Counted from the stretch's first letter, positions 18,496-21,049 are shown. The stretch is DNA of 35,534 nucleotides from Microcystaceae cyanobacterium (GCA_041746575.1 JBGTGT010000069.1:1-35534), one strand, 5' to 3'. The notes: a model not told the origin generated them from the sequence alone. Made by a program: numbers and translations.

Positions 18496-20439
18496 ATGGC
18501 CAATAAAGCTGTTTTATGCGGCATCAATCAATATCAAACCCAAACAGACCTGAGAGGCTGTCTGAACGATGTGGACAATCTTTCGTCTCTGCTTACCCAG
18601 TCTTTTGCCTTTGATCCCGCTAATATCCATTCATTACGGGATGAGCAAGTAACCAAACGTGCCATTGAAAAGGAATACAATTGGCTCATCAGGAATGTTC
18701 ACTCCGGCGATCAACTCGTTTTTCATTTTTCAGGTCATGGCTCTTATGTTCCCGATGATCAAGGAGATGAAAGCGATGGAGCAGATGAAATTCTCTGTCT
18801 TTATAATATGGACTTCTACAATCCTGAAACCTATATTCGGGATGATGAATGGCAGGCGATGATCGAACGTGTTCCCGATGGGGTACATTTAACTTTTATC
18901 TTTGATAGTTGCCATTCAGGAACAGGAACAAGAAGCATCACAGTAAATGTGGATGGAAATCAGCAAACACTCCTTCTAGATACTGAAACAGCAACTCAAC
19001 GCGGTCTTTACACCCCTTTAACCGTTAGTCGTTCAGGAAGTGAGTCAGACACCCTTGATTCAGCAGAATATCAGCAATTAGTACAAGAACAATCGGTGAT
19101 TTTACCCCGTTTTCTGCCCCCTCCACCAGAATTCGACAATAAAATTCGCTCCTTCGCCCGCTCAGGCACACTCAGAACCACCGTCCTCCCTTTGGAAAAA
19201 CATCTTCTTTTAGCAGGGTGTCGGGACGATCAAACCTCGGCAGATGCTTATATTGACAATAATTTCAACGGTGCATTCACCTATTATCTCTGTCAAACCC
19301 TGAGAGAAAATCCTAATTTGGGATCTCAGCAAACGATTCAACAGGTTACTCAACAGCTTACCAACAATCACTTTTTCCAAGAACCTCAACACGAGGGGCA
19401 ACCTCGAATCGGTTCACTTTTCGGTCAATCTTCTTCTAATACGGTTATTTCCGATAACGATATGCTTGATTCTATTCCCGATCCCAGAAACGTACCGAAT
19501 CTCACCCCAGAAAACCAGAAACTTCTGATAGAGGCCTATATTAAGCTTCTAGATACGCTTGGCGGCACAGGCGGTTTAGTCACCGAAGACAAAGAGATTA
19601 CCCTACGTCGCACTGCTAATCGGTATTTGGTCTATGTCCACGGCATTGGGACGCATCCGAAGGGCTATTCTGAGGATTGGTGGAACGCGCTTAAACCATT
19701 TGTTCCGGCTATCTTTGGCGATGGCAGCCTCAATGATACTCGACGAGAAGTCTTCTGGAGTGATTTAGTCAATCAAAAAAGCCGTTCTCTAGGCGATATC
19801 GCTCAAGAAGAACAATTACGCCGAGAAATTGAGTTAATTTTAGAAGAACGACGTAAACAGATGATTGCTGAACAGACGGGCGGTGGACAGGCGGCACGTC
19901 AAGCGATTCAAGCTCCTACTGCAAGAGGAGAGGGGCTATCTTGGGATGATTTTTTAGTTTATATGGTCAACCCGACGATGCGCCAAAACATTCTTAAACG
20001 TTTTACTGAGGTTGTTCAACCTTTACTAGCAAGCGGGGCTGAAATTGACATTATCTCTCACAGTTGGGGAACAGTGGTATCTTACGAAGGATTACGAGAA
20101 TTAGAACAGCTATCCTTATCAGGACGAGTAAATGCCTTCTTTACCGTCGGGAGTGCCTTATCCCTTGGGCCGGTTCGTATTGCTTTACGGTCAGAAAATA
20201 AAAATGGCCGTCGTCCAACCATGGTCAATCAATGGATTAATTTGGACGCTAAAGGAGATCTCGTCGGTGGACTCTTAGGAGACCAATTTGAAGTTAATCA
20301 AGAATATTTGAAATTAGAACCGACAGGTTGCCCCGGTTTCTTAGGAATTTATAATCTCGTCTGCGCTCACAGTTCCTATTTTGATCGTCGCAATTTGACC
20401 GTTAATGATGATATTTTTGCTCGATATATCAATGGTTAA
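18496..20439 (+). CDS. Caspase-like (peptidase C14, ortho/metacaspase) protease fused to a C-terminal alpha/beta-hydrolase
   Basis: Protease: LRGCLND, FSGHG (H81), DSCHSG (C139) and p10-like ACRDDQTSAD-type segment GCRDDQTSAD...GAFT...QEP. Hydrolase: VHGIG oxyanion loop, SHSWG elbow (S523), DAKGDLV (D588), AHSSY (H625). Confidence 0.88.
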   Translation: MANKAVLCGINQYQTQTDLRGCLNDVDNLSSLLTQSFAFDPANIHSLRDEQVTKRAIEKEYNWLIRNVHSGDQLVFHFSGHGSYVPDDQGDESDGADEILCLYNMDFYNPETYIRDDEWQAMIERVPDGVHLTFIFDSCHSGTGTRSITVNVDGNQQTLLLDTETATQRGLYTPLTVSRSGSESDTLDSAEYQQLVQEQSVILPRFLPPPPEFDNKIRSFARSGTLRTTVLPLEKHLLLAGCRDDQTSADAYIDNNFNGAFTYYLCQTLRENPNLGSQQTIQQVTQQLTNNHFFQEPQHEGQPRIGSLFGQSSSNTVISDNDMLDSIPDPRNVPNLTPENQKLLIEAYIKLLDTLGGTGGLVTEDKEITLRRTANRYLVYVHGIGTHPKGYSEDWWNALKPFVPAIFGDGSLNDTRREVFWSDLVNQKSRSLGDIAQEEQLRREIELILEERRKQMIAEQTGGGQAARQAIQAPTARGEGLSWDDFLVYMVNPTMRQNILKRFTEVVQPLLASGAEIDIISHSWGTVVSYEGLRELEQLSLSGRVNAFFTVGSALSLGPVRIALRSENKNGRRPTMVNQWINLDAKGDLVGGLLGDQFEVNQEYLKLEPTGCPGFLGIYNLVCAHSSYFDRRNLTVNDDIFARYING

Positions 20440-20459: not shown

Positions 20460-20496
20460 AAAAGAAAGGTAAAATCTCGCTTTTTCCCTTTCTTTT
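20460..20496 (+). terminator. Hairpin downstream of the caspase-hydrolase gene
   Basis: AAAAGAAAGG (20460-20469) pairs with CCTTTCTTTT (20487-20496). Confidence 0.5.
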
Positions 20497-20598: not shown

Positions 20599-20790
20599 AT
20601 GTTTCAGCAATGGTTACAAAATATCAAAAATACGATCGTCCAAGATGTTCCCCCTGCTATCTCTCGGTGTGAGTTTGATTGTCGTAAAAGTGTAATGTGT
20701 CACGATTGTCCTTTGAGACAACGTTATACTCAGATGAGCCATCGGTCTTTGGGCAAAATTAACAGAAAAGTTGCAGAAATTAGCGGTTAA
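20599..20790 (+). CDS. Small Cys-rich hypothetical protein (63 aa)
   Basis: GGAG RBS, ATG start, and the motif IVQDVPP..CEFDC-x5-CHDC. Confidence 0.55.
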   Translation: MFQQWLQNIKNTIVQDVPPAISRCEFDCRKSVMCHDCPLRQRYTQMSHRSLGKINRKVAEISG

Positions 20791-20884: not shown

Positions 20885-21049
20885 ACGTGAGTTCGACCAT
20901 CAGAAAATCTACGAGAATTCTTTATTTAATTTTTTTTTGTGCAGGGGGTTTGGGGGGCTAGTCCCCCAATCAAGAATTTGTTTTTCTTTTCCTAATCCCA
21001 ACGAGAATGGACAAAAAAATTGAGATAATTGCCCTCGTCGAACTCACGT
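20885..21049. mobile_element. 165-bp MITE, probably IS982-family derived
   Basis: Perfect 13-bp TIRs ACGTGAGTTCGAC (20885-20897) and GTCGAACTCACGT (21037-21049), flanked by a 7-bp direct repeat TAAAATT (20878-20884, 21050-21056). No transposase. The family assignment is from recall of TIR shape. Confidence 0.85.

Follow-up and report, generated by a model that had tools for sequence, protein, structure and literature searches.

Modules in which a caspase-like protease is encoded beside an alpha/beta-hydrolase are the closest described relatives of the gene that we analyse here. In MoxR-vWA conflict systems the caspase is without exception accompanied by an adjacent gene for an alpha/beta-hydrolase (first noted by Kaur et al., 2020, PMC7159879), and in a pair from Lysobacter capsici AZ78 LcCaspase cuts LcHydrolase at two sites, assigned to R73 and R117, each between Arg and Gly and 44 residues apart. 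The resulting fragments are of 8.1, 4.7 and 19.8 kDa, the N- plus C-terminal fragments kill E. coli, and cleavage by two protomers of a caspase tetramer is the published model (Evans et al., 2025, bioRxiv 10.1101/2025.11.14.688446). Here we describe a cyanobacterial gene which joins both enzymes in one polypeptide, a metacaspase-like protease followed by an alpha/beta-hydrolase, in a 35,534-nucleotide stretch of DNA from a Microcystaceae cyanobacterium (GCA_041746575.1 JBGTGT010000069.1:1-35534; this whole stretch is the window, and its features are collected in Table 1). We infer, with moderate confidence, the cuts, the activation, the substrate, the toxicity and the defence role together: the metacaspase would cut the type of hydrolase carried on its own chain after R430 and R477, releasing a likely toxic lipid-ester hydrolase for cell suicide in defence. 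Cleavage after these two arginines is in itself probable and, given the cleavage, a toxic or defensive outcome is to be expected with similar assurance.

The N-terminal half is a metacaspase and not an orthocaspase, given its p10 region, the feature that separates the two groups (PMC5756287). Both p20 (residues 3-143) and p10 (residues 237-299) align in sequence to solved metacaspases, four metacaspase entries in the case of p10, and the best matches of this half are metacaspases both by Foldseek (E 5e-18, to AtMC4) and by phmmer (E 4e-31). Conservation was counted over 114 aligned full-length homologues, six partial or split matches being left out, and C22, D25, H81, D97, D116, D137 and C139 in this half, with H382, S523, D588, C612, C623 and H625 in the other, are invariant in all 114, so the catalytic residues are not there by chance. 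A preliminary description, made from the sequence alone, had read a complete C14 protease and a complete Ser-Asp-His hydrolase into the 647-residue open reading frame (ORF); each of its residue numbers and motifs was found as given, and the invariance of six catalytic residues (H81, C139, H382, S523, D588 and H625) bears it out. In TbMCA2 the S1 residues are C92, D95 and D211 and the Ca site comprises D173, D189, D190 and D220 (PMC4357240). With equivalents set by motif and by offset from the catalytic residues, without superposition, C22, D25 and D137 are the counterparts of the S1 residues in 114/114, and D97, D116 and D117 retain three of the four Ca-site aspartates; the position of the fourth, D220, holds Arg in 108 and Lys in 6 homologues. 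Because the S1 pocket is acidic, the property that gives Arg/Lys specificity (PMC5756287), we predict that this metacaspase is catalytically active and directed at Arg; its Ca dependence may be altered, the fourth ligand position being Arg/Lys, and R146, which stands there, could be a site of self-cleavage.

The C-terminal half is, by its modelled structure, a lipase-like alpha/beta-hydrolase with a nucleophile elbow and a Ser-Asp-His triad. The model (pLDDT 92.8, pTM 0.92) matches lipases and phospholipases across the whole domain (Z 15.2, rmsd 2.7, 164 residues aligned), and dozens of hydrolases with other functions lie within 3 Z units of the top structural matches; since so many hydrolases score alike, the fold does not fix the substrate, and a lipid substrate is a lead only. 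Foldseek, which the preliminary description had advised for each half, has the DDHD domain of Nir2 as its match here (E 1e-4), a domain that is catalytically dead (PMC12582312); the likeness is structural only, as the DDHD Pfam family had no match at E 0.1 among 68 hydrolase members. In Pfam this half has no match above cut-off (the best is Abhydrolase_6, E 0.017), a PDB sequence search with the hydrolase profile reached E 0.39 at best, and the ESM Atlas returned clusters either unnamed or tagged as LCAT, PGAP1 or DUF900 hydrolases, with no function assigned. A helical lid (residues ~427-482) spans the stretch from the third strand to the helix that precedes the nucleophile; its two ends are the least confident parts of the otherwise confident model, and it is in these two loops that R430 and R477 lie. 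The linker to the metacaspase, of ~60 residues, is partly disordered in the full-length model, and an Arg near position 371, found in about half of the homologues, is a possible release site.

Several comparisons connect this hydrolase to the two-gene module. HHalign of its profile against 11 two-gene-type hydrolases, from plasmids and cyanobacteria, gave a probability of 99.5% (E 4e-23) for a 99-column match centred on the catalytic Ser and Asp, and the profile recovered plasmid hydrolases at E ~1e-16 to 1e-19 (4/4 tested). Matches by tblastn of the hydrolase to plasmids were weak, with an annotated caspase gene directly upstream in 6/14 plasmid regions and, by translation, a caspase-like gene adjoining in several more. 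The two-gene members L119, L121 and L123 carry the motifs of the second LcHydrolase site, LcHydrolase itself being compared by eye only, and a joint alignment places R477-G478 in the same column as the ERGP motif of two-gene members, in which the cut would fall between Arg and Gly. By these alignments the fusion hydrolase is a distant homologue of the two-gene caspase-activated hydrolases. A search for split versions, proposed in the preliminary description, thus found homologous caspase and hydrolase pairs on plasmids and in the cyanobacteria G004 and G322, both members of the same family, so that both one-gene and two-gene forms occur in this group. The residue after R430 and its equivalents is Ser, Ala or Thr and not Gly; R430 and R477 are 47 residues apart (median 49 in fused homologues), and cuts after both predict fragments of 6.9 (counted from residue 372), 5.3 and 19.0 kDa. 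Separately, several rhizobial two-gene hydrolases (L091:3518-4390, L094:3584-4393, L117 and L118) carry Met-Gly or Leu/Gln-Gly in place of the Arg-Gly of LcHydrolase, hinting at caspases with another P1 preference.

The two lid arginines accompany the caspase. Across all parsed domains (307 of 344 distinct full-length hydrolase domains) both were present in 157/187 fused to an intact caspase and 10/14 with a partial caspase, against 7/39 stand-alone domains, 6/37 with another N-terminal extension and 11/30 probable fragments. A strict set, which left out 5'-open loci, 13 frameshifted or uncertain loci, partial caspases and three unparsed proteins, and was reduced from 275 rows to 128 at 75% identity, retained both in 86/93 caspase-fused and 4/34 caspase-less members, with one trypsin fusion kept apart. 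Arginine content of the core was equal (0.079 in fused, 0.075 in caspase-less members) and the triad was retained in both groups, whereas Arg density in the windows around the two sites fell from 0.181 to 0.037 and from 0.097 to 0.025. Stand-alone forms of Nostocales, at 59-60% identity in the nearest example, are without both lid arginines, and the equivalents of R452 and R496 persist in caspase-less members, unlike R430 and R477. Loss of the arginines with loss of the caspase is the pattern expected if the partner must cut the lid, although such covariation would not amount to proof.

Caspase-less members often have another protease at hand: S41 proteases adjoin four (L051, L053, L054, L064) and are fused to two (L056, P0286), other fusions are to thermolysin M4 (L018, P0239), astacin/M10-like (P0265) and trypsin (P0251) proteases, and S8 (L008, L009, L187) or M36-like (L055) proteases adjoin others. 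A further subgroup of stand-alone members, of ~280 residues, is rich in Met and Ala at the ends of the lid and is not known to have a protease partner; among its contexts, three close loci of which one is informative, a 281-residue member without the first lid Arg is flanked by the specificity and methylase genes of a type I restriction-modification locus (L132:186-2819). The Cys pair C612/C623 (window 20329-20364), beside the catalytic His, was present in 92/93 fused and 33/34 caspase-less members of the strict set and is absent in the two-gene type; in a protein that looks cytoplasmic it may form a disulfide or act as a redox switch.

In the mechanism that we propose, a signal would activate the metacaspase, which would cut after R430 and R477 and perhaps in the linker too, removing the 47-residue lid segment with its middle helix; the lid would then re-form, and the freed hydrolase would attack membrane lipids, killing or arresting the cell. 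Cleavage could proceed in cis or in trans. With no sensor domain, the likeliest triggers would be an ion signal, in view of the three Ca-binding aspartates retained out of four, or a protease acting upstream, since the genome has a caspase-like/nSTAND1/WD40 protein and half of the homologues adjoin CHAT, TPR-S or other protease genes. This genome (G000) holds three more caspase-like genes, L213 with a substituted dyad motif, L214, whose dyad is intact and whose C-terminal half has no annotation, and L215 with nSTAND1 and WD40 repeats (contigs C28, C40 and C56); a protein of the L215 type could act upstream of the fusion, though no tie to this gene was seen. A bolder form of the idea, which we regard as tentative and doubtful, is a sensor-less, single-chain suicide enzyme in which an ion- or redox-responsive metacaspase opens its own membrane lipase, with a lid re-tuned to each protease family (C14, S41, M4, M12-like, S1, S8) and perhaps a bacterial relationship to the eukaryotic DDHD lipases.

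The gene is rare and scattered. Whole-protein searches gave 546 matches among 8000 scored candidates, and most of the 120 listed were full-length at 39-63% identity; the best 80 of 117 genome loci came from cyanobacteria (Pleurocapsales-, Nostocales-, Leptolyngbya- and Cyanobium-type), Planctomycetota and two Caldilineaceae, the occurrences in Planctomycetota and Chloroflexota being scattered. G002 alone of 60 relatives had the fusion, as an intact 644-residue gene in another context, and the same-genus G001 (92% complete, 8% contaminated) had none. Among 401 genomes of the phylum, with six candidates scored per genome, the fusion was found in the present genome alone and a 345-residue caspase-less form in four, so that ~1% of cyanobacterial genomes (5/401) have any member. 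The patchy distribution anticipated in the preliminary description was therefore found (1/60 relatives, 1/401 phylum genomes), and within its genus the gene shows no synteny. At E 1e-30 the hydrolase profile recovered 173 clusters, a number that rose to 2683 at E 1e-3, which marks a tight clade inside a large family; viral contigs gave one weak match (E 1e-6). No longer protein (1134-3235 residues) with this hydrolase was scored, which is weak evidence.

Genes typical of conflict systems recur around the homologues: a CHAT-lipase, SLOG-CHAT, TPR-S, MBL, other protease or peroxidase gene lay within 2.5 kb in 32/62 genome loci and 23/50 metagenome loci with the fusion. The MBL neighbour matches LmuA (E 1e-10), RTasMBL and Avs1a in PADLOC, and matches of the CHAT, TPR-S and S8 neighbours there are weak or generic. 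Recurrent operons combine the fusion with CHAT/DUF7379-lipase/TPR-S (Cyanobium), with SLOG-CHAT, or with an HExxH metallopeptidase-like protein and MBL (Planctomycetota). In the last of these (L074:3122-6819, L037:9094-11118, L045, L050, L061, L147, L166, L186, L192, L205) a ~670-residue HExxH protein without Pfam match accompanies MBL and fusion, and the MBL may be activated by the metallopeptidase or by the fused caspase. Elsewhere large DUF7379-lipase/CHAT/TPR-S and SLOG/CHAT proteins directly adjoin the fusion (L022:762-6680, L026, L029, L068:9010-12810, L080:3498-7163), so that a second protease and a second lipase stand in one operon. Several cyanobacteria (L005, L011, L013, L017 and L023) encode DyP-type or haem peroxidase/catalase-like proteins upstream of the fusion or the stand-alone hydrolase, and one Cyanobium group has a conserved non-defence context with aspartate kinase downstream (L032-L043).

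The zymogen effector suggested in the preliminary description gains from the homology to the two-gene module, the two candidate Arg sites and the loss of arginines without the caspase; it gains nothing from the locus, which has neither defence genes nor foreign composition. A number of observations weigh against a protease-released killer. The neighbours in this genome are housekeeping genes, none of the three tested having a PADLOC match, and GC content at third codon positions (GC3) in the fusion gene is 0.36, inside the range of eight host genes (0.30-0.44). The survey of homologues for defence neighbours, likewise proposed earlier, was positive for conflict-type genes at 32/62 loci and negative here, and 30/62 genome and 27/50 metagenome loci are without any listed partner, from a partner list seeded from the same loci, many of them short and with kin counted. 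A tree-aware test of the covariation was not significant: there were 13 state changes but only 4 independent pairs on supported branches, of which an average of 2.5 had the arginines on the side with the caspase and 0.0 the reverse (median p 0.25), and the Fisher p of 3e-18 counts kin as independent. The site windows were set after viewing the alignment and differ slightly between the two analyses, and the mid-lid helix is so Arg-rich that 76% of 8-residue windows contain an Arg. Some caspase-less members (L006, L011, L042, L161, L164) have no protease beside them, and others are fused to non-proteases (ferritin-like, tyrosinase, EEP). The tie to the two-gene family is itself distant, with low identity (22% to L119), a profile match over the catalytic core and not the lid, a first site that aligns only within ~ten residues, and a helix after the second site that is missing in the fusion clade. 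Finally, the full-length model (pTM 0.60) does not fix the relative placement of the two domains, and phage protection by LcHydrolase is not reported in the text available (bioRxiv 10.1101/2025.11.14.688446).

Much of this would suit the same proteolytic switch put to a non-lethal use, a protease-gated lipase or esterase for membrane remodelling, signalling or stress recovery: the housekeeping neighbours and host-like GC3, the lack of a sensor domain, the conserved aspartate kinase context in Cyanobium, the single weak viral match and the ordinary lipases and phospholipases among the closest folds are what such a role would leave. We nevertheless find it unlikely, as a maintenance enzyme accords poorly with the rarity of the family (5/401), its scatter in Planctomycetota and Chloroflexota, its frequent conflict-type neighbours, the caspase-less member inside a type I restriction-modification locus and the toxicity of the tested homologue LcHydrolase.

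Two further explanations concern the arginines. CHAT and trypsin proteases could cut after Arg too, and many operons hold further proteases or effectors (metallopeptidase-like with MBL and fusion; CHAT-lipase-TPR-S with fusion), as this genome encodes three caspase-like proteins besides the fusion, of which one has nSTAND1 and WD40; a different protease might then open the hydrolase, while the fused metacaspase acts mainly on CHAT-lipase, MBL or host proteins and the fusion serves to co-localise two effectors of a cascade. This appears quite improbable, because the arginines track the fused caspase and not the neighbours, being kept in fusions without partners, the present one included, and mostly lost with the caspase. 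Alternatively, there may be no activation by cleavage at all, the hydrolase being constitutive and R430 and R477 structural or engaged with a partner surface or anionic lipid; arginines are frequent throughout the lid, surface residues R416, R452 and R496 are equally conserved, and the tree-aware test is not significant. We consider this very unlikely, since R430 and R477 lie in variable, low-confidence loops, have a small residue next to them, are rarely Lys and vanish in caspase-less members where the equivalents of R452 and R496 stay, and since their position and the predicted fragment sizes match the published LcHydrolase cuts. Cleavage by the fused metacaspase, releasing a toxic hydrolase, remains the reading that we prefer.

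Homologues at 39-63% identity and 100% coverage, among the matches listed, back the call of the whole gene. Peptidase_C14 (residues 3-300, E 2.6e-30) was the sole family found by Pfam on the whole protein, and the sole match in PADLOC 2.0 was a generic 'caspase' model (E 2e-21), with the full set of any listed anti-phage system not matched and no match to the hydrolase half. NCBIfam gave nothing above cut-off; the model of EACC1-associated caspases (NF047832) scored 40 bits against a cut-off of 140, and no small ORF of at least 80 residues, as a possible EACC1 partner, lies between pfkB and the fusion gene. The absence of a sensor domain, a transmembrane helix and a signal peptide had all been noted beforehand and was upheld: the Pfam, PADLOC and NCBIfam scans of the protein showed no sensor domain, the highest 19-residue Kyte-Doolittle mean was 1.21, and the first caspase strand begins at residue 3 (by model and alignment, with no dedicated predictor), which leaves no room for a signal peptide. 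Of the flanking genes named earlier, Pfam confirmed a PfkB kinase gene 113 bp upstream on the same strand and, at the level of the family, an FtsH protease gene that faces the fusion gene from the other side. The ORF list also includes what we take to be chlL/chlN-like genes, a sulfate ABC transporter and a group 2-like sigma factor, a content which, with the names of the closest homologues, marks the window as cyanobacterial. In G001, G002 and family members different genes adjoin pfkB and ftsH, so that comparison with an empty site cannot show an insertion here, and recent horizontal transfer is not supported, GC3 being host-like. Scans of the window for promoters and terminators found no more than in shuffled sequence (4 vs 5.8 and 4 vs 2.7), and Rfam had no match within it. 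The nearby miniature inverted-repeat transposable element (MITE) of the preliminary description is real and irrelevant to the gene: it begins 445 bp past the stop codon and has 71 BLAST matches genome-wide, itself included, so a link to the fusion gene was rejected. Its copies often lie at contig ends, and a longer subtype exists. Between fusion gene and repeat is a 63-codon ORF with four Cys (CxxxC...CxxC; window 20599-20790, + strand), single-copy by BLAST coverage.

Table 1 Features of the fusion gene and its 3' flank, in window positions.
Feature	Position	Strand	Remarks
Whole gene	18496..20439	+	647 aa, metacaspase-like protease and alpha/beta-hydrolase fusion; ORF open
C14 metacaspase domain, aa 1-310	18496..19425	+	p20 aa 3-143, ~90-aa insertion, p10 aa 237-299
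Dyad H81	18736-18738	+	In FSGHG motif beginning at aa 78
Dyad C139	18910-18912	+	In DSCHSG motif beginning at aa 137
R146	18931-18933	+	Occupies position of fourth TbMCA2 Ca ligand (C+7)
Linker, aa 311-374	19426..19617	+	Conserved helix aa 338-355 between low-confidence stretches 315-328 and 356-368
Alpha/beta-hydrolase domain, aa 375-647	19618..20436	+	HGI at 382-384 (VHGIG from 381)
R430, candidate cleavage site 1	19783..19785	+	Lid start; Arg in 109, Lys in 3 of 114 homologues; putative cut
R477-G478, candidate cleavage site 2	19924..19929	+	Lid end; Arg in 111/114, next residue Gly in 87, Ala in 16; putative cut
S523	20062-20064	+	Nucleophile, SHSWG motif from 521
D588	20257-20259	+	Triad Asp
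H625	20368-20370	+	Triad His
Hairpin, possible terminator	20460..20496	+	15-bp arms, 7-nt loop; just 3' of stop; not called by consensus scan
MITE-like repeat	20885..21049		13-bp terminal inverted repeats 20885-20897/21037-21049; not part of system

The concept is less new than it had first seemed: a prediction of the two-gene form dates from 2020 (PMC7159879), and its test from 2025 (bioRxiv 10.1101/2025.11.14.688446). Known already are the logic of a protease unlocking an effector and the hydrolase superfamily; apparently new are the metacaspase form on a single chain and without a sensor, the clade itself, and the swapping of proteases with a matching change of lid. None of the three was found in the literature searched, which did not extend to subscription papers (the supplement and figures of Evans et al. 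may show fused cases), and the available parts of the bacterial metacaspase surveys PMC3501461, PMC4933709 and PMC7475262, and of PMC8195603, do not describe the fusion. As the hydrolase has no Pfam match above cut-off, surveys of architecture based on Pfam would miss it. If our reading is right, a single gene encodes a self-contained caspase-hydrolase death module, its cut sites predicted with residue precision, in which activation in cis or in trans, the trigger and the hydrolase substrate could all be addressed in one protein. It would also give a cyanobacterial metacaspase a concrete substrate and function, which bears on its role in cyanobacterial cell death, and the loss of arginines upon a change of partner protease would be a natural experiment on the rewiring of protease-effector pairs.

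Compared with known systems, the fusion shares its dyad, S1 pocket and p10 with plant, fungal and trypanosome metacaspases (AtMC4 6w8s, AtMC9 8a53, Yca1 4f6o, TbMCA2 4afr) and with Geobacter GSU0716 (3bij), and differs from them in the Arg/Lys at the D220 position (114/114) and in the C-terminal enzyme. Like type II metacaspases it has no prodomain and a long insertion between p20 and p10, an assignment of type made by features and not by a tree. Plant type II metacaspases were the top structural matches of residues 1-310, and a review confines this type to the green lineage (PMC5756287). For the other half, the metagenomic lipase Lip_vut1 (6nkc) and lysosomal PLA2 (4x90) are tied as fold matches (Z 15.2 and 14.6), and the Nir2 DDHD domain (9jyx; Z 12.4, rmsd 4.9), the top Foldseek match, gives the longest alignment, 209 residues; all three have just 14-17% identity to it. 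The protease-effector pairs of bacterial gasdermin, Pepco, EACC1 and MBL likewise rely on a protease to unlock an effector that is otherwise latent, but with unrelated effectors and separate genes. The nearest counterpart is LcCaspase/LcHydrolase, which has a homologous hydrolase (by way of plasmid-borne members with the same motifs), a caspase-like partner, and two Arg sites flanking a lid segment with spacing and fragment sizes similar to those of the putative cuts here. There, two genes encode the module, with a ~600-residue or sensor-fused caspase, and it is found chiefly in Actinobacteria and Pseudomonadota; here, one polypeptide, mostly of cyanobacteria and Planctomycetota, carries a sensor-less metacaspase with p10 and Ca-site aspartates. 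Its hydrolase forms a separate clade with an invariant Cys pair by the catalytic His and without the helix after the second site, a clade which, unlike the two-gene module, swaps its partner for S41, M4, M12-like, S1 and S8 proteases.

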